From: Escherichia coli
GTDB taxonomy: Bacteria; Pseudomonadota; Gammaproteobacteria; Enterobacterales; Enterobacteriaceae
Length of the DNA stretch: 64,000 bases
NCBI RefSeq assembly: GCF_016903815.1
Contig: NZ_CP069973.1
Reading direction: 5' to 3' (one strand)
Shown: positions 42,275-50,661 of the stretch, piece after piece
Layout: each line of letters starts with the position of its first letter
Numbering within the stretch: position 1 is the first letter of the stretch
Position numbers and translations under genes: made by a program
The notes under the pieces: model-generated
Seen by the model: only the letters and a program-made list of their open reading frames with translations
The model's database searches: none
Told to the model about the DNA's origin: nothing

Positions 42275-43399
42275 TTAAATTTGCTTTTCATACAATCGGT
42301 AACGCTTGTACGGCTCCGCCCCAATGCGTTCCAGCATGTTATTCATGCCTGTATTGGTTTCGAGGATCCATGACATCTCCAGCGCATCGATCTTCCGGCG
42401 GGCAAACGGATCGCGTAAGGCTTCAATCAATAACAGCGCAATCACCGGGCCGATGCGGCTGAACTGATACTCGTCGCGCACGCCCATCAGCGGTACTCGC
42501 GCAGTTCGCACACCGCTGACTTTCAAACGCCACAGCAATTTTGCCCAGCCGAAGGGAAAGAGCGATCCGTTCAGATCGGCAATCGCCTCGTTGATGTTCG
42601 GCAAGCCGACAATAAACGCGCAGGGTGCAGAATCAATCTCAGCGATATAGATCATATCGTCCGGCACCAGATATTTAAGTTGATCGCCCATGGTCGCGAA
42701 TTCATGTTCGGTAAACGGCACAAATCCCCAGTTGTGCTGCCAGCCAGAGTTGAAAATCTCACGCAGGATCTGCATCTCTTCGGCAAACCGCTGACGATTG
42801 ATGCAGCGAATGGTCACCTTTTTGCGCACCTGATCCATCAGTTTTTTTAGCGCCGGAGAGAAAGTGAGATCGGTTCGCTGCATCCACCACGCCAGTAAAT
42901 CAATGCCTTTGTGATAACCCAGTTGTTCAATATGCGCGGCATACCACGGTTTGCCGTGTGGCATCATCGCACAGGGTGGTGTGTCAAAACCTTCAATCAG
43001 TAATCCGCTTTCCTGATTGATATTCAGGCTGAAAGGACCGCTGATCTTACTTGCACCTTGTGACTTCAACCACGCTTCCGCTGCGCCAAACAACGCGGCA
43101 AAAACCTGCGGATCATCAATGGCGTCAATCATGCCGAAATGACCGGTATCTTTGCCGTAACGCTCGCGGTGCAAGGTATCTATTTGCGCGGTAATACGCC
43201 CAACTATCTGCCCCGCTTTTTTTGCCACCCACGCCTGCCAGATGATATGGTCCGTCCCCGGATTTTTCGCAGACAAATGCTCGTTGCGTTCAATGAATAA
43301 AGGGGGTATCCAGTTTGGATCGTCGGGATAAAGTGATGACGGAAAAGCGATAAATGCCTTAAGGTCATTTTTATTAATTACTTTTTCAATTTTAATCAT
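42275..43399 (-). CDS. yghO: YghO family protein; candidate N-acyltransferase partner of the adjacent lipid operon
   Basis: ORF open from 43495, with more plausible starts at internal Mets (MIKIEKVINKND..., at about 43399); divergent from the acyl-AMP ligase operon. Acyltransferase assignment is an inference, not a motif call. Confidence 0.6.
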   Translation of the reverse strand: MIKIEKVINKNDLKAFIAFPSSLYPDDPNWIPPLFIERNEHLSAKNPGTDHIIWQAWVAKKAGQIVGRITAQIDTLHRERYGKDTGHFGMIDAIDDPQVFAALFGAAEAWLKSQGASKISGPFSLNINQESGLLIEGFDTPPCAMMPHGKPWYAAHIEQLGYHKGIDLLAWWMQRTDLTFSPALKKLMDQVRKKVTIRCINRQRFAEEMQILREIFNSGWQHNWGFVPFTEHEFATMGDQLKYLVPDDMIYIAEIDSAPCAFIVGLPNINEAIADLNGSLFPFGWAKLLWRLKVSGVRTARVPLMGVRDEYQFSRIGPVIALLLIEALRDPFARRKIDALEMSWILETNTGMNNMLERIGAEPYKRYRLYEKQI

Positions 43400-43784
43400 C
43401 AGCAGATCGCATTCCATAGTTCTGTTCTGTGGGTAACAAATAATTAACGGTGACAAACAGGTTGCAACAGCAACGAACGGCACCTTAATAATCAACCCAA
43501 TGAATACAAACGACGAATAAATAGTATTTATTAATGATTACGATAAGGTCAGAGACTACACAGAAGCGCCACAATGCCTTTTGTCGATTTAAGGCGACCG
43601 GACAAGGCTTCTTCTTAATATATTCATAAATTAAATATCATTCACAATAAAAACAAAAAAACTCAAACTCATTATTTAAATCAATGTTCATTTTCACACT
43701 GATGAAAATACTATCTCATTTATCTTTTATGCCTATATAATCCACCGCATTATTGTCATTTTATTTTGGATATCCAATTTTTTC

Positions 43785-45515
43785 GTGGTGTATATGTCTA
43801 ATAAAATCTTTACGCATTCCCTACCTATGCGCTATGCCGATTTTCCAACGCTTGTTGATGCTTTGGACTACGCCGCTCTGAGTAGCGCCGGAATGAATTT
43901 TTATGACAGACGTTGCCAACTTGAAGATCAACTGGAATATCAGACGTTAAAAGCACGTGCCGAAGCTGGTGCGAAGCGGTTGTTATCGCTGAACCTGAAA
44001 AAAGGCGATCGCGTGGCACTGATTGCCGAAACAAGTAGCGAGTTCGTAGAGGCTTTTTTTGCCTGCCAGTATGCCGGCTTAGTCGCCGTCCCGTTGGCGA
44101 TTCCAATGGGCGTTGGTCAGCGGGATTCCTGGAGCGCCAAATTGCAGGGTTTACTGGCAAGTTGCCAGCCCGCAGCCATTATCACTGGTGATGAGTGGTT
44201 GCCACTGGTCAATGCCGCGACGCATGACAACCCCGAATTACATGTTTTAAGCCACGCCTGGTTTAAGGCATTACCGGAAGCCGATGTTGCGCTCCAGCGT
44301 CCAGTTCCGAACGATATCGCCTACCTCCAGTACACCTCCGGCAGCACCCGTTTTCCCCGTGGCGTCATTATCACCCATCGCGAAGTGATGGCTAATCTAC
44401 GTGCTATAAGCCACGACGGCATTAAATTACGCCCTGGCGACCGCTGCGTCTCCTGGCTGCCTTTCTACCATGATATGGGACTGGTCGGCTTTCTCCTGAC
44501 CCCCGTCGCCACGCAGCTTTCAGTAGATTATTTGCGCACTCAGGATTTTGCCATGCGTCCTCTGCAATGGCTTAAATTGATCAGTAAAAATCGCGGCACC
44601 GTTTCCGTTGCGCCGCCGTTTGGCTATGAATTGTGCCAGCGCCGCGTGAATGAAAAAGATCTCGCTGAACTGGATCTTTCCTGCTGGCGCGTCGCTGGTA
44701 TTGGTGCAGAACCCATCTCCGCAGAACAACTCCATCAATTCGCTGAATGTTTCCGTCAGGTTAACTTTGACAATAAAACTTTCATGCCGTGCTACGGACT
44801 GGCAGAAAATGCGCTGGCTGTCAGCTTCTCTGATGAAGCCTCCGGGGTTGTGGTTAACGAAGTGGATCGCGACATCCTCGAATATCAGGGTAAAGCCGTC
44901 GCGCCGGGTGCAGAGACACGCGCCGTATCGACTTTCGTCAACTGCGGCAAAGCGTTGCCGGAACATGGTATTGAAATCCGCAATGAAGCAGGTATGCCGG
45001 TCGCGGAACGTGTGGTAGGCCATATTTGCATCTCCGGTCCCAGTCTGATGAGCGGTTACTTTGGCGACCAGGTTTCGCAAGACGAGATTGCCGCGACGGG
45101 CTGGTTAGACACCGGCGACCTCGGTTATCTGCTGGACGGTTATCTGTATGTCACCGGACGCATTAAAGATCTGATTATTATTCGTGGCCGTAATATCTGG
45201 CCGCAGGATATTGAATATATAGCGGAACAGGAACCGGAAATTCATTCTGGCGATGCGATTGCTTTTGTTACCGCCCAGGAAAAAATCATTTTGCAGATCC
45301 AGTGTCGGATCAGCGACGAAGAACGTCGCGGGCAGCTTATCCACGCGCTGGCGGCACGGATCCAAAGCGAATTTGGCGTGACCGCGGCTATCGATCTGTT
45401 GCCGCCCCACAGTATTCCCCGAACGTCCTCCGGCAAGCCTGCCCGTGCGGAAGCGAAAAAACGTTATCAGAAGGCTTATGCTGCCAGTCTTAATGTGCAG
45501 GAATCCCTGGCATGA
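43785..45515 (+). CDS. Fatty acyl-AMP ligase / acyl-ACP synthetase-like adenylating enzyme
   Basis: 576 aa ORF; AMP-binding motif YTSGSTRFPRGVIITH, later TGDLG and GRIKDLIIIRGRN motifs; 4-bp overlap with the next gene. Confidence 0.85.
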   Translation: MVYMSNKIFTHSLPMRYADFPTLVDALDYAALSSAGMNFYDRRCQLEDQLEYQTLKARAEAGAKRLLSLNLKKGDRVALIAETSSEFVEAFFACQYAGLVAVPLAIPMGVGQRDSWSAKLQGLLASCQPAAIITGDEWLPLVNAATHDNPELHVLSHAWFKALPEADVALQRPVPNDIAYLQYTSGSTRFPRGVIITHREVMANLRAISHDGIKLRPGDRCVSWLPFYHDMGLVGFLLTPVATQLSVDYLRTQDFAMRPLQWLKLISKNRGTVSVAPPFGYELCQRRVNEKDLAELDLSCWRVAGIGAEPISAEQLHQFAECFRQVNFDNKTFMPCYGLAENALAVSFSDEASGVVVNEVDRDILEYQGKAVAPGAETRAVSTFVNCGKALPEHGIEIRNEAGMPVAERVVGHICISGPSLMSGYFGDQVSQDEIAATGWLDTGDLGYLLDGYLYVTGRIKDLIIIRGRNIWPQDIEYIAEQEPEIHSGDAIAFVTAQEKIILQIQCRISDEERRGQLIHALAARIQSEFGVTAAIDLLPPHSIPRTSSGKPARAEAKKRYQKAYAASLNVQESLA

Positions 45516-46426
45516 ATCAAACTGTCGCGGTGACGGGCGCTACCGGGTTTATCGGTAAATATATTATCGATAACCTGCTCGCCCGCGGCTTTCACGTTCG
45601 CGCATTGACGCGTACTGCCCGCGCTCACGTCAATGATAATCTCACCTGGGTGCGCGGTTCGCTGGAAGATACTCATTCACTTAGCGAGCTGGTTGCCGGA
45701 GCCAGCGTAGTGGTCCATTGCGCCGGGCAAGTGCGCGGGCACAAAGAAGAGATTTTCACCCGCTGTAACGTTGACGGCAGCCTGCGCCTGATGCAAGCAG
45801 CAAAAGAGAGCGGCTTTTGCCAACGTTTTCTGTTTATCTCTTCGCTGGCGGCGCGCCATCCCGAGCTCTCCTGGTATGCAAAATCCAAATACGTCGCCGA
45901 GCAACGACTGGCAGCAATGGCGGACGAAATTACGCTGGGCGTTTTTCGCCCGACAGCCGTGTATGGTCCCGGCGATAAAGAGTTAAAACCGCTGTTTGAC
46001 TGGATGCTGCGCGGCCTGCTGCCACGACTTGGTGCGCCAGATACACAGCTCTCTTTTCTGCACGTCACCGATTTCGCGCAAGCAGTGGGTCAGTGGTTAA
46101 GCGCCGAAACTATACAGACGCAAACCTATGAATTATGCGATGGCGTCGTCGGCGGCTATGACTGGCAACGCGTACAGCAACTTGCCGCCGACGCCCGTTG
46201 CGGTTCCGTGCGAATGGTTGGCATTCCTCTGCCGGTACTCACCGGCCTTGCGGATATCAGTACCGCGTTGAGTCGCCTGGCAGGTAAAGAACCTATGCTG
46301 ACCCGCTCGAAAATTCGTGAATTAACCCACGCCGACTGGTCGGCAAGTAATAACCGTATTTCTGAAGATATTAATTGGTTTCCCGGGATTAGCCTGGAAC
46401 ACGCATTACGCAACGGGCTATTTTGA
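45512..46426 (+). CDS. NAD(P)-dependent epimerase/dehydratase-family reductase (candidate ketosphinganine/ceramide reductase)
   Basis: 304 aa ORF; N-terminal Rossmann motif VTGATGFIGKY; operon position between the adenylating enzyme and the ACP. Confidence 0.8.
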   Translation: MNQTVAVTGATGFIGKYIIDNLLARGFHVRALTRTARAHVNDNLTWVRGSLEDTHSLSELVAGASVVVHCAGQVRGHKEEIFTRCNVDGSLRLMQAAKESGFCQRFLFISSLAARHPELSWYAKSKYVAEQRLAAMADEITLGVFRPTAVYGPGDKELKPLFDWMLRGLLPRLGAPDTQLSFLHVTDFAQAVGQWLSAETIQTQTYELCDGVVGGYDWQRVQQLAADARCGSVRMVGIPLPVLTGLADISTALSRLAGKEPMLTRSKIRELTHADWSASNNRISEDINWFPGISLEHALRNGLF

Positions 46427-46457: not shown

Positions 46458-46706
46458 ATGGTAAATCGTGAAATAGTAATGGATTACATCCTTTCCTGTT
46501 TACAGGATTTGGTCGAAAACGGTGTGGAAATTAAGCCCGACAGCGATCTCGTCAACGATCTTGGCCTGGAGTCGATCAAAGTGATGGATCTCTTAATGAT
46601 GCTGGAAGACAGATTCGATATTTCCATTCCTATTAATATTCTGCTGGATGTCAAAACCCCTGCGCAATTAATGGAAACTCTACTTCCATGGCTGGAGAAT
46701 AAATAA
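46458..46706 (+). CDS. Dedicated acyl carrier protein
   Basis: About 75-82 aa; phosphopantetheine attachment motif DLGLESI; acidic; stop overlaps the start of the following synthase gene. Confidence 0.8.
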   Translation: MVNREIVMDYILSCLQDLVENGVEIKPDSDLVNDLGLESIKVMDLLMMLEDRFDISIPINILLDVKTPAQLMETLLPWLENK

Positions 46707-47878
46707 TGGGGCTATACGATAAATATGCGCGCCTTGCTGGCGAGCGACTGCAATTTAGTGACAACGGGTTAACACCGTTTGGCACCTGTATTGATGAAGT
46801 GTATTCCGCCACCGAAGGCCGGATCGGCAATAAAAAAGTGATTCTGGCCGGGACCAATAATTATCTCGGTTTAACCTTTAATCATGATGCCATCAGCGAA
46901 GGTCAGGCCGCGTTAGCGGCCCAAGGTACCGGCACCACCGGTTCTCGTATGGCAAACGGCAGTTATGCGCCGCACCTGGCGTTAGAGAAAGAGATTGCCG
47001 AGTTTTTCAATCGCCCTACCGCTATCGTTTTTTCAACCGGTTATACCGCTAATTTAGGCGTCATCAGCGCACTTGCCGACCATAACGCCGTGGTGTTACT
47101 GGATGCCGACAGCCACGCCAGTATTTATGACGCCTGTTCTCTCGGTGGCGCGGAAATTATTCGTTTCCGCCATAACGATGCTAAAGATCTGGAACGGCGC
47201 ATGGTTCGCCTCGGTGAACGGGCGAAAGAGGCGATTATCATCGTTGAGGGTATCTACAGCATGCTCGGTGACGTTGCGCCGTTAGCGGAAATTGTTGATA
47301 TCAAACGTCGTCTCGGTGGTTATTTGATTGTCGATGAAGCGCATTCGTTTGGCGTGTTAGGCGCAACGGGGCGCGGACTGGCTGAAGCTGTCGGCGTTGA
47401 AGATGATGTGGATATTATCGTTGGCACCTTCAGTAAAAGTCTGGCCTCGATTGGCGGTTTTGCTGTCGGTTCGGAAGCGATGGAAGTGCTGCGCTACGGC
47501 AGCCGCCCGTATATTTTTACCGCCTCTCCTTCTCCGTCCTGCATTGCGACCGTGCGCTCGTCGTTAAGAACTATTGCCACACAACCAGAGCTGCGGCAAA
47601 AGCTGATGGATAATGCCAACCATCTGTATGACGGTCTGCAAAAACTGGGTTATGAGTTAAGTTCACATATTAGCCCGGTAGTGCCGGTAATAATCGGTTC
47701 GAAAGAGGACGGTTTACGCATCTGGCGCGAGCTTATTTCGCTGGGCGTTTATGTGAATCTTATCCTGCCACCTGCCGCGCCTGCAGGCATCACGCTGCTG
47801 CGCTGTAGCGTAAACGCTGCTCACAGTCGTGAGCAAATCGATGCCATCATTCAGGCATTTGCTACTCTGAAGCAGTAA
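46706..47878 (+). CDS. Alpha-oxoamine synthase, serine palmitoyltransferase-like (PLP-dependent)
   Basis: 390 aa ORF; PLP-lysine region GTFSKSLASIGGF typical of the AOS family (Spt/KBL/BioF/CqsA); paired with an ACP and an acyl-AMP ligase. Confidence 0.85.
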   Translation: MGLYDKYARLAGERLQFSDNGLTPFGTCIDEVYSATEGRIGNKKVILAGTNNYLGLTFNHDAISEGQAALAAQGTGTTGSRMANGSYAPHLALEKEIAEFFNRPTAIVFSTGYTANLGVISALADHNAVVLLDADSHASIYDACSLGGAEIIRFRHNDAKDLERRMVRLGERAKEAIIIVEGIYSMLGDVAPLAEIVDIKRRLGGYLIVDEAHSFGVLGATGRGLAEAVGVEDDVDIIVGTFSKSLASIGGFAVGSEAMEVLRYGSRPYIFTASPSPSCIATVRSSLRTIATQPELRQKLMDNANHLYDGLQKLGYELSSHISPVVPVIIGSKEDGLRIWRELISLGVYVNLILPPAAPAGITLLRCSVNAAHSREQIDAIIQAFATLKQ

Positions 47879-47883
47879 TGTGA

Positions 47884-47916
47884 GCCCGCCGTGGTGTTGC
47901 GCCACGGCGGGTTTAA
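47884..47916 (+). terminator. Rho-independent terminator-like hairpin between convergent genes
   Basis: Perfect 10-bp GC-rich stem CCCGCCGTGG/CCACGGCGGG followed by TTTAATGTT, just after the Spt-like stop and overlapping the stop of the convergent permease gene. Confidence 0.6.
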
Positions 47917-48992
47917 TGTTGTCTGTCATACCAATACACCAGGCTCAACGCCACCAGCACAAACGCTATCGGTAAACCGAGCGCGGTAACAGGTGCGCTC
48001 AACGCAAATAGCAATCCCAGATTGACCATGATTTGATAGCTGATCCAGGTGAGTAAGCCAACGATGACACCTACAGCGAGACGGCTACCCATCCCTGGCG
48101 AGCGCGGGGCGCTAAAGGTAAACGGCACAGCCAGCAAAATCATCGCCAGGGTCAGGATGGGTTGCCCCAGTTTTTCCCACAGTGCAAGGCGGTATTCGCT
48201 GCTGGGTTGCCCGGTTTCCTGCAAATAATGGATGTAATGATTAAGCTGACGGACAGAAAAAGTATTGCCCGGCATTGATAACTCTTCAAGATCCATACTG
48301 GTGAAGGCCGATTGCCAGGCAAGATTATCTAATGTTTCCAGCGTTTCTTTGCCATTCAGCCATTTTTTATGATTCACACCATGCAGGATCCACGTTTTGT
48401 CGTCTTCAATGGTGGCACTGCGTGCATAAATGTAGGATTCGAGCGAGAGATCGTCGCGATAATGAAAAATCTCCACGCCCACCGGCTGGCCCTGCTCGTT
48501 CAGCGATTTCACCGTCACAAATTCATTACCACGCCTGGCCCACAGCATATTGCCGGTAATGTCATCGTCCTCCCCCAACGCGGTGGCGGTCGATTTGATT
48601 TGCAACGCCTGTTGCTGTAATGGCGACGCTACCCACTCATCTATCGCGCCTAACGAAACAGTCCACAATATCCCTGTAACCAGCGCCACCAGTGCAATAC
48701 GGAAGATAGAAAACCCCATGCTGCGAATGGCGGTAAGCTCACTGTTTTTCGATAACTGCCCCAGGCCGACAATCCCTCCCAATAAGGCGATAAATGGCGA
48801 AAGTTCGACCAGTGTGCGCGGTAAGGTCATTAGCACCACCAGCACCGCCTGAGTCCAGCGATAACCGCCCGGGCTGACATCATCCAGTTCGTTAATCAGG
48901 TTGAAGGTGGTAAAAAGCGGCAGCAATAGCCCTGCGGCGGCGGCAAAACCGAGAAAGAGATGACGGATTAAATAGCGGCTGAAAACATTCAT
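47913..48992 (-). CDS. LptG-like (YjgP/YjgQ family) permease, paralog
   Basis: About 359 aa from MNVFSRYLIRHLFLGF; polytopic membrane protein with a large periplasmic loop; ATGA overlap with the upstream paralog; the ORF track start at 49073 is likely an extension. Confidence 0.75.
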   Translation of the reverse strand: MNVFSRYLIRHLFLGFAAAAGLLLPLFTTFNLINELDDVSPGGYRWTQAVLVVLMTLPRTLVELSPFIALLGGIVGLGQLSKNSELTAIRSMGFSIFRIALVALVTGILWTVSLGAIDEWVASPLQQQALQIKSTATALGEDDDITGNMLWARRGNEFVTVKSLNEQGQPVGVEIFHYRDDLSLESYIYARSATIEDDKTWILHGVNHKKWLNGKETLETLDNLAWQSAFTSMDLEELSMPGNTFSVRQLNHYIHYLQETGQPSSEYRLALWEKLGQPILTLAMILLAVPFTFSAPRSPGMGSRLAVGVIVGLLTWISYQIMVNLGLLFALSAPVTALGLPIAFVLVALSLVYWYDRQH

Positions 48993-50059
48993 CGGGAAAA
49001 TTTCTGCAGCAAAGAGAAGTCGCGTGCGACCAGCATCAGCAGGCCCATTAGCATGAGTCCGGGTACTAACCACAAACCAGGAATGAGGGGAATCGCGCCG
49101 TTAGCCACCAGCGTACGGCAGACGTCACCGCCATAAAAAATGGCAATAAACAGCAACGTCAGTGGCAATAACGTTGAAAATCGCCCTTGCCGCGGTTTTA
49201 CCCGACTTAATGAAATGGCCAGCAGCGCCATCAACAATGCGGTCAGGCCACGGCTTTGCCGCCATTGCAGTTCGGCATGATCGGCTGGAAAGACGGAGCG
49301 CGCCAGCTCCGTGACCGATTTCGCTTTGCGTTTGACGTTAGGGCTTTGATCCAGCGGATTCAGATGTAATTGCAGATTACGGTAGATCTGTTCGTTGTCA
49401 TCACGCCCCTGATGATCGATAAGATAGGCAGTGCCGTTGTGCAACATAACGGTCGGTTTCTCGGGTGATGGGTCAATCACATCAACCGAACGGGCGCGGA
49501 AAATGCGGGTTCGATTGGCAGTAGAAGTATAAATCAGCGCGTCAGTCAGGCGATTATTATCCTGATCAACCGTCTGCGAAAGGATCATTCGTCCGTTATC
49601 GTTAGTGTTAAATTTCTTTGCCCGCAACTGGCGAACATCCAGCTCCGACTGCGACTGCTGCTCCAGTTGATAAATCTGCGCATAAGCCCACGGACGACCA
49701 TACATCGACAGAAGGGTGACAAAAATACTTAGCGGTATCGCCAGATAAAGAACGGCTTTGTACAAGCGTCCCGGACTGCCCCCCGCCGCAGAGATAGCGG
49801 TAATTTCCGAGTCGGTATACATCTGCCCTAGCGTCACGCCAACTGACACATACAGACCAACAGGTAACAACATCTCCAGTGCAATCAGTACTTTGTAGAA
49901 AACGATATCCAGCACAACATCAAGAGCTAATGTCCCATTTGCCGCTTCGGTCAGATAACGCTGTGCGGAGTAGCTGGCGAAAATAAAGATCAGAAAACCG
50001 ACGATAATCAGCACCAGACGGCGCGTACCACGCATGATGTAGTGTTCAACCAGCTTCAT
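48989..50059 (-). CDS. LptF-like (YjgP/YjgQ family) permease, paralog
   Basis: 356 aa polytopic membrane protein with a periplasmic loop; paired with the LptG-like gene; no adjacent ABC ATPase. Confidence 0.75.
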   Translation of the reverse strand: MKLVEHYIMRGTRRLVLIIVGFLIFIFASYSAQRYLTEAANGTLALDVVLDIVFYKVLIALEMLLPVGLYVSVGVTLGQMYTDSEITAISAAGGSPGRLYKAVLYLAIPLSIFVTLLSMYGRPWAYAQIYQLEQQSQSELDVRQLRAKKFNTNDNGRMILSQTVDQDNNRLTDALIYTSTANRTRIFRARSVDVIDPSPEKPTVMLHNGTAYLIDHQGRDDNEQIYRNLQLHLNPLDQSPNVKRKAKSVTELARSVFPADHAELQWRQSRGLTALLMALLAISLSRVKPRQGRFSTLLPLTLLFIAIFYGGDVCRTLVANGAIPLIPGLWLVPGLMLMGLLMLVARDFSLLQKFSR

Positions 50060-50089: not shown

Positions 50090-50653
50090 TTATTCATTGA
50101 TCAGTTTCTGCGCCAACGCAATGACATGATCTACCTCTTCCGGCGTCAGGCTGCCGTCCTTTGCCCACTGAATTTGCCCGGCTTTATTCAGCACCAGAAT
50201 GGTTGAACTCTGCTCCGGCAAGCGCCAGGCAACGCGTCCCTGTCCATTGCCGTCAATAACGAATTGCGCCCACGGATAGCGGCGTTTATTTTTTTCGATT
50301 TTGCCAACAACAAAATAGCCAGTACCAAAGATGGCATCATCGGTGTTCACAATGGTGGTGGGCTGAAAACGATCCTGCGGAAAGTTTGCCGCTTCAACCG
50401 CTTTAATTAACAGTGAGTTCTTTTTCTTCGCCGACTTACGCCCGGCGATATACTGAATAATGCGGACTTTTCCCGCTAATTGTGTGCTGTTCCACTTTTG
50501 GTAGTGAATTTCGTCGTCGCTATTCAGAAGCAGCTCGCCGCCTTCCTGGATATAAACAGGGGTAACCGTTTTGCCAGTGACGAAATTGTGTGCCTGCACA
50601 CCCGGGGCTAAGAGCATGATAATCAACGCAATAATCAAACGAGATGACATCAT
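50090..50653 (-). CDS. YtfJ-family-like periplasmic protein
   Basis: 187 aa ORF with signal peptide (MMSSRLIIALIIMLLAPGVQA); family assignment from recollection of YtfJ-like proteins, not verified. Confidence 0.6.
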   Translation of the reverse strand: MMSSRLIIALIIMLLAPGVQAHNFVTGKTVTPVYIQEGGELLLNSDDEIHYQKWNSTQLAGKVRIIQYIAGRKSAKKKNSLLIKAVEAANFPQDRFQPTTIVNTDDAIFGTGYFVVGKIEKNKRRYPWAQFVIDGNGQGRVAWRLPEQSSTILVLNKAGQIQWAKDGSLTPEEVDHVIALAQKLINE

Positions 50654-50661
50654 TGCTCCGG

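Follow-up and report, generated by a model that had tools for sequence, protein, structure and literature searches.

Which enzyme would supply the N-acylation step of the sphingolipid gene cluster found in this stretch of Escherichia coli DNA, and is it the product of the neighbouring gene yghO? The sequence analysed here (64,000 nucleotides, referred to as the window) carries its genes in the order glcDEFGBA, glcC, yghO, the sphingolipid cluster, yghRST, and pitB. The preliminary description had proposed YghO as the N-acyltransferase of the operon with adjacency as its only argument; this proposal is now supported by a tandem GNAT fold, by coupling to the operon, and by published homology to the Caulobacter protein CC_1154. 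With a probability of roughly 85%, the bacterial ceramide synthase (denoted bCerS, CerS, or Aca; CC_1154 = CCNA_01212) has its E. coli ortholog in YghO, which would play the role in the pathway proposed below. The assignment is not new, since it was already published in 2022 as a bioinformatic ortholog call. The legend of Fig. 9 in Padilla-Gómez et al. (2022) reads ‘aca: CC_1154, yghO ECD_02850’ for E. coli BL21 (PMC9386255). CC_1154 and YghO are full-length homologs, with an E value of 1e-107, 44% identity, and 98% coverage for CC_1154 versus ECD_02850, figures that are those of the paper (PMC9386255, Table S2) and not of this analysis.

The yghO locus, its start codon, and its distribution in E. 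coli

The four-gene operon is located on the + strand, and yghO is divergent from it, as had been described before. Its first gene, aasR (43797..45515, +), encodes a fatty acyl-AMP ligase/acyl-AcpR synthetase (NF006624, 878 bits). It is followed by cerR/epi (45512..46426, +) for an SDR-type reductase with matches to NAD-dependent epimerase/SDR families (ECD_02852 in PMC9386255), acpR (46458..46706, +) for a specialised acyl carrier protein with ACP family matches, and spt (46706..47878, +) for a serine palmitoyltransferase (NF047599 equivalog, 599 bits versus a cut-off of 500). The start of aasR is ambiguous (43797 or 43826): in RefSeq (strain MB19) the protein starts with MRYADF and comprises 562 aa, the NF006624 alignment begins at residue 5 of the longer form (MSNKIF, 572 aa), and the ORF lister gives a GTG at 43785 as a further possible start.

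The 397-bp intergenic region between yghO and aasR (43400..43796) presumably holds both promoters. Its AT-richness, also noted in the preliminary description, was borne out (32.7% GC versus 49.6% for the window), and is unexceptional, as 9.6% of 400-bp windows are equally low. A scan of this spacer for promoters and terminators yielded one weak sigma-70-like match on the - strand, not above chance, and an alignment of the spacer between genera revealed a conserved block at the start region and nowhere else. Since a cross-genus conserved block beyond the start region is missing, no regulatory site is proposed.

Downstream of spt, lptG2-lptF2 (47913..50059, -) encode paralogs of LPS export permeases (TIGR04408 and TIGR04407, both above their cut-offs). 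By analogy, LptG2/LptF2 are likely sphingolipid transporters; the Caulobacter LptF2/LptG2 homologs have been implicated in this transport (bioRxiv 10.64898/2026.04.12.717747). Beyond them, the flippase-like protein YghQ is encoded on the - strand. Between lptF2 and yghQ (50090-51486, -) reside the genes of a YtfJ-family protein (TIGR01626) and of a 274-aa protein for which no NCBIfam match was obtained. Both accompany the sphingolipid cluster across Enterobacterales, and a homolog of the 274-aa protein with 51% identity is encoded near the yghO homolog of Luteibacter (locus L054 of this analysis).

The genes yghR, yghS, and yghT (52881-55252) encode P-loop kinase paralogs annotated as ‘dTMP kinase’. 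They accompany the sphingolipid cluster in several genera (loci L006, L008, L010, L012, L017, and L040), and in one of these (L040, a MAG from the Betaproteobacteria), the spt operon and the yghO homolog flank a gene for a YghS homolog of 55% identity. YghR, YghS, and YghT could be head-group or lipid kinases of the sphingolipid pathway. In the present strain, yghR (52881-53641, -) is frameshifted and continues in frame for ~99 codons before it reaches a stop (…SPALWARR), while the intact yghR of strain MB19 encodes 252 aa and continues …SPALWAAVIMYC… (L001, 22606-23364).

The ORF of yghO (42275-43495, -) counts 406 codons from a TTG and contains Met codons at positions 27 (MECDLLM) and 33 (MIKIEK). 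The ambiguity of its start, pointed out in the preliminary description, is real with respect to these two Met codons; the 406-aa form, by contrast, does not correspond to a protein. It is an artefact of ORF calling, because a 92%-identical Escherichia genome (L003) shows in-frame stops there, within an Escherichia-specific insertion of ~80 nt that substitutes for the leader of the other genera and contains the whole TTG-to-Met27 stretch. The TTG-initiated extension (43418..43495, -) is accordingly non-coding. The favoured CDS (42275..43399, -) starts at Met33 and comprises 374 aa plus the stop. Homologs with ~80% identity (from Serratia, Citrobacter, Pluralibacter, Pantoea, Erwinia, Hafnia, and others) are nearly all 374 aa long, and the ATG equivalent to Met33 is conserved in other Enterobacterales genera, where it is preceded by the sequence TAAGG(C/T)TGTTT with a conserved, well-spaced AAGG Shine-Dalgarno motif and by in-frame stops immediately 5' of the ATG. 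RefSeq places the start at Met27, giving 380 aa, and Met27 is also kept in L003. The six codons by which this form is longer (MECDLL, 43400..43417, -) are an Escherichia-only stretch; both of its two differences from L003 are non-synonymous, compared with 79% synonymous differences in the body of the CDS. On these sequence comparisons, Met33 (43399, 374 aa) is the more probable true start, with Met27 as the alternative, and the MECDLL stretch is probably part of the 5' UTR. yghO is under strong purifying selection, with a dN/dS of 0.06 versus L003 and of 0.06-0.09 versus other genera.

Of the 5426 complete genomes of E. coli surveyed, 4548 carry yghO and 4183 carry the operon; both are contiguous in 4068 (75%), contiguous meaning that at least 80% of the 5.6-kb query was found in one place. 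K-12 and its derivatives form the main class of genomes with yghO only. In K-12, an IS5 element adjoins the 5' end of yghO, and the DNA from aasR into yghQ is deleted (L002, DH10B, 5001-7152). The encoded protein starts with MISYQGLVRTFL instead of the native MIKIEKVI, with the native first 8 residues gone, so K-12 YghO is left without its native promoter and first beta-strand. This altered N-terminus matters for experiments using yghO from K-12 or the ASKA collection. IS insertions in or beside the locus are also found in several strains.

These observations bear on the alternative that survives best, namely that YghO is a genuine bCerS by descent whose locus is cryptic in E. coli, i.e. silenced or never expressed, and yields no physiological product. 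The AT-rich spacer with its promoter signal not above chance would agree with this, as would the loss of the operon in K-12 with no obvious harm, the frameshift in yghR, the IS insertions, and the fact that no report of E. coli ceramides was found in the literature searched. Against it, the dN/dS of 0.06 across Escherichia and the ~80% protein identity across genera point to continuing selection, and three quarters of the complete genomes hold all of these genes intact and side by side. A cryptic locus is regarded as unlikely.

Linkage to sphingolipid genes across taxa

The wider YghO family encompasses 6480 clusters at 50% identity (E<=1e-3). Relatives were collected with the pattern [AG]WxxNW[GE]F[VLI]P, chosen automatically from the most conserved peptide; the scan of 100,044 species genomes gave 599 relatives, and 80 loci were kept. 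The kept set represents the closer relatives, and Caulobacter CC_1154 is not among them. Linkage was scored by tblastn with the proteins of the window, and in 55 loci the flanks extended for 8 kb or more in both directions. Of these 55, 51 have spt, aasR, or lptF2/lptG2 paralogs no further than 10 kb away: spt was found within 10 kb in 31 loci, aasR in 2, lptF2/lptG2 only in 18 (the arrangement of Nitrosomonas), and none of these genes in 4. In 30 of the 80 loci, as in the window, the gene and aasR point away from each other over a distance of less than 1.5 kb; such loci come from Enterobacterales, Pseudomonas, Salinicola, Nitrococcus, Nitrospira, and Gemmatimonadetes. Uncoupling of yghO from the operon was thus not seen, either in the loci with full flanks or in the contiguity among E. 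coli genomes. The syntenic taxa include the proven ceramide producer Roseovarius tolerans. YghO shares 43% identity with the homolog of this species (L080) and 50% with that of Nitrosomonas eutropha (L071); all five ceramide genes have been reported from both species.

Names and fusions within the family point in the same direction. A natural fusion from Chenggangzhangella (A0A9E6RH89 in AFDB, 752 aa), annotated as LptF/LptG family permease, contains a domain resembling YghO with a TM of 0.95 to the model, and one homolog was named by its source ‘Hypothetical protein associated with Serine palmitoyltransferase’.

Other long fusion forms of the family comprise 784, 630, and 940 aa (P0121, P0132, and P0191). 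On a metagenome contig (L083, 9448-11149), a 44%-identical member (P0135) is encoded beside a NUDIX hydrolase gene, and spt is absent from the stretch that the contig covers, i.e. ~10 kb on the upstream side and ~2.4 kb on the downstream side. This neighbour is probably the origin of the family misnomer ‘dATP pyrophosphohydrolase’, and the NUDIX linkage suggests a sub-clade with a different role. Shimwellia pseudoproteus (L004 and L013) harbors two yghO paralogs, an 84%-identical copy with the full operon and a second one of 75% identity (L013) with no sphingolipid gene within 10 kb. Given the NUDIX-linked members and the unlinked Shimwellia copy, belonging to the family is no guarantee that a protein acts as a ceramide synthase; in the case of YghO, the gene neighbourhood dispels most of this doubt.

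In Caulobacter, CC_1154 is needed for the formation of dihydroceramide (PMC11324152). Its gene and yghO are alike in that both reside in a transcription unit apart from aasR-cerR-acpR-spt, yghO being encoded on the strand opposite to aasR and divergent from it, and both are found beside lptF2/lptG2-type genes in one sphingolipid locus. They differ in distance, as yghO is directly divergent from aasR whereas the Caulobacter gene lies several genes away. The Caulobacter region also comprises genes for the phosphoglycerate head group (CC_1158-1161, CC_1152/1153). CC_1154 is the genetically defined N-acyltransferase, while activity, donor, and product of the E. coli protein are predicted.

Fold of YghO and its predicted acceptor

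YghO was recognised with confidence as a tandem GNAT acyltransferase and shows no regulator fold, in agreement with the earlier proposal of an acyltransferase. The GNAT alpha/beta fold occurs twice, as seen in the AF2 secondary structure and in matches to tandem-GNAT structures; the assignment is model-based, drawing on the predicted structure together with marginal profile matches (E 0.033). While the sequence is beyond the reach of current HMMs, the fold is not. YghO gave no Pfam match even at E<=10 and no NCBIfam match, a precomputed PF00583 match is present on a few close homologs (Pluralibacter and one other relative), and sequence and profile searches versus PDB chains produced chance or marginal matches only.

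The N-terminal GNAT-like domain (residues 1-178; 42866..43399, -) is delimited by AF2 secondary structure and tandem-GNAT matches and harbors the near-invariant residues G67, R68, I69, A71, G86, F88, and G89; on inspection by eye, the canonical CoA-binding motif A, i.e. the pyrophosphate-binding loop [QR]-x-x-G-x-[GA], was not seen in this domain. The C-terminal GNAT domain (residues 179-374; 42278..42865, -) is the predicted acyl-CoA-binding and catalytic domain. Profile matches to the GNAT core (3tt2 with E 0.033, 2ge3, and 7ovv) fall at profile positions 307-379, and W220, N223, W224, R301, G306, E341, W344, N349, K365, and Y367 are invariant or near-invariant. A motif-A-like segment, MGVRDEYQFSRIGPVIALLL (residues 305-324; 42428..42487, -), aligns to ‘vGVRRPWRGRGIALALL’ of the GNAT protein 3tt2; here, ‘VRDEYQFSRIG’ is set against ‘VRRPWRGRGIA’ with a 4-residue insertion and at an E value of only 0.033. 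The most conserved peptide is the family signature GWQHNWGFVP (residues 219-228; 42716..42745, -). Judged from the AF2 model alone, YghO forms a compact alpha/beta globule with no long hydrophobic helices. bCerS was reported as a peripheral protein (PMC11087976), and relatives of YghO are reported to be cytoplasmic and peripherally membrane-associated.

Known structures of tandem-GNAT N-acyltransferases include MAB_4324 (7q3a), glucosamine N-acetyltransferase (5kf1), the clavulanate protein ORF14/CBG (2wpw), and the mycothiol synthase MshD (1ozp, 2c27), all with no more than 12-15% identity to YghO. They acetylate soluble acceptors, whereas YghO, which is longer by ~40-80 residues, would be expected to use long-chain donors and a lipid acceptor. 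A more distant match is N-myristoyltransferase (2p6e), whose acceptor is a protein N-terminal glycine and which provides a mechanistic analogy only. Eukaryotic ceramide synthases (Lag1/CerS, with a TLC domain) catalyze the same net reaction, the N-acylation of a sphingoid base by acyl-CoA, but they are multi-pass ER membrane proteins of unrelated fold, whereas the bacterial enzyme is a soluble or peripheral tandem GNAT. Stankeviciute and colleagues are said to have described the two types in 2022 as a case of convergent evolution.

The acceptor is the point on which a second alternative departs from the ceramide synthase assignment: YghO would be a GNAT with a non-sphingoid target, for instance lysine residues of proteins, amino sugars, or amino acids, and its adjacency to the operon would be incidental. 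The nearest solved structures indeed use sugars, a mycothiol precursor, aminoglycosides, or histidine (glucosamine N-acetyltransferase, MshD, Eis, histidine N-acyltransferase), yet at 12-17% identity to YghO they have the fold in common and not the specificity. Some family members are not linked to spt; against this stand the 51 of 55 full-flank relatives linked to genes of sphingolipid synthesis or transport, and the genetic requirement of the Caulobacter ortholog for dihydroceramide. YghO was furthermore included as a candidate GNAT in a screen for lysine acetyltransferases (PMC6199490). That screen, however, used the K-12 allele with the altered N-terminus. Reportedly, YghO was not one of the four new lysine acetyltransferases that emerged from it. 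A non-sphingoid target thus appears quite improbable. The legacy reading of YghO as a DNA-binding transcriptional regulator of the divergent operon, which is kept alive by several UniProt/AFDB and NCBI family entries named ‘DNA-binding protein’ or ‘DNA-binding transcriptional regulator’ and by a divergent arrangement that is common for regulators, is rejected on the fold, as no DNA-binding protein is among the structural matches listed for YghO.

Proposed ceramide pathway and its meaning for E. coli

Three proteins of the operon, AasR, AcpR, and Spt, have been found active in their E. coli BL21 versions: AasR was shown to acylate AcpREc, and Spt is active in vitro (PMC9386255). The same paper reports a 4'-phosphopantetheine prosthetic group for the BL21 ACP ECD_02853. 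The literature searched yielded no test of YghO in E. coli, whether by enzymology, genetics, or lipidomics.

Fold, family membership, synteny, and purifying selection of YghO are shown in this analysis; the following scheme is what we infer with regard to donor and acceptor of the acyl group, to the succession of reactions, and to the very formation of the lipid in E. coli. AasR would adenylate a fatty acid and load it onto the dedicated carrier AcpR, and Spt would condense acyl-AcpR with serine to 3-ketosphinganine. YghO, as the ceramide synthase, would then attach a further fatty acyl chain to the amino group at C2 of the long-chain base. The C-terminal GNAT domain would bind the donor, an acyl thioester that is most likely acyl-CoA, with the long-chain base held in the cleft between the two domains. 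The SDR protein CerR is supposed to reduce the 3-keto group before or after N-acylation, forming dihydroceramide; even for Caulobacter, there is disagreement on whether acylation or reduction comes first. Finally, dihydroceramide may be exported by the YghQ-type flippase together with LptF2/G2.

The E. coli locus has already been drawn in this way by two groups, in 2022 (PMC9386255) and in a 2026 preprint that shows the sphingolipid operons of E. coli UTI89 beside those of Caulobacter (bioRxiv 10.64898/2026.04.12.717747). Added here are an independent confirmation of the fold, the linkage numbers, the likely start codon, and the non-native N-terminus of YghO in K-12 and ASKA. If right, the assignment would also correct the database names ‘DNA-binding transcriptional regulator’ and ‘dATP pyrophosphohydrolase’.

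Provided that the prediction for YghO is right, a full ceramide pathway, equipped with an Lpt-like transporter of its own, is encoded in most natural E. coli strains and has been lost from K-12 via an IS5-associated deletion. Such a pathway would bear on the outer-membrane biology of E. coli, its susceptibility to polymyxin, and its interaction with the host. A further and more tentative proposal, to which we give somewhat less than even odds, is that roughly 75% of E. coli strains (the share among the complete genomes), K-12 excepted, produce an outer-membrane lipid based on ceramide in some natural setting, with YghO as the obligatory N-acyltransferase and LptF2/G2 as the dedicated exporter; in a sub-variant, YghO would draw on acyl-AcpR as the donor instead of acyl-CoA. 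Should this be true, work with laboratory strains would have missed a whole lipid class of the model organism.
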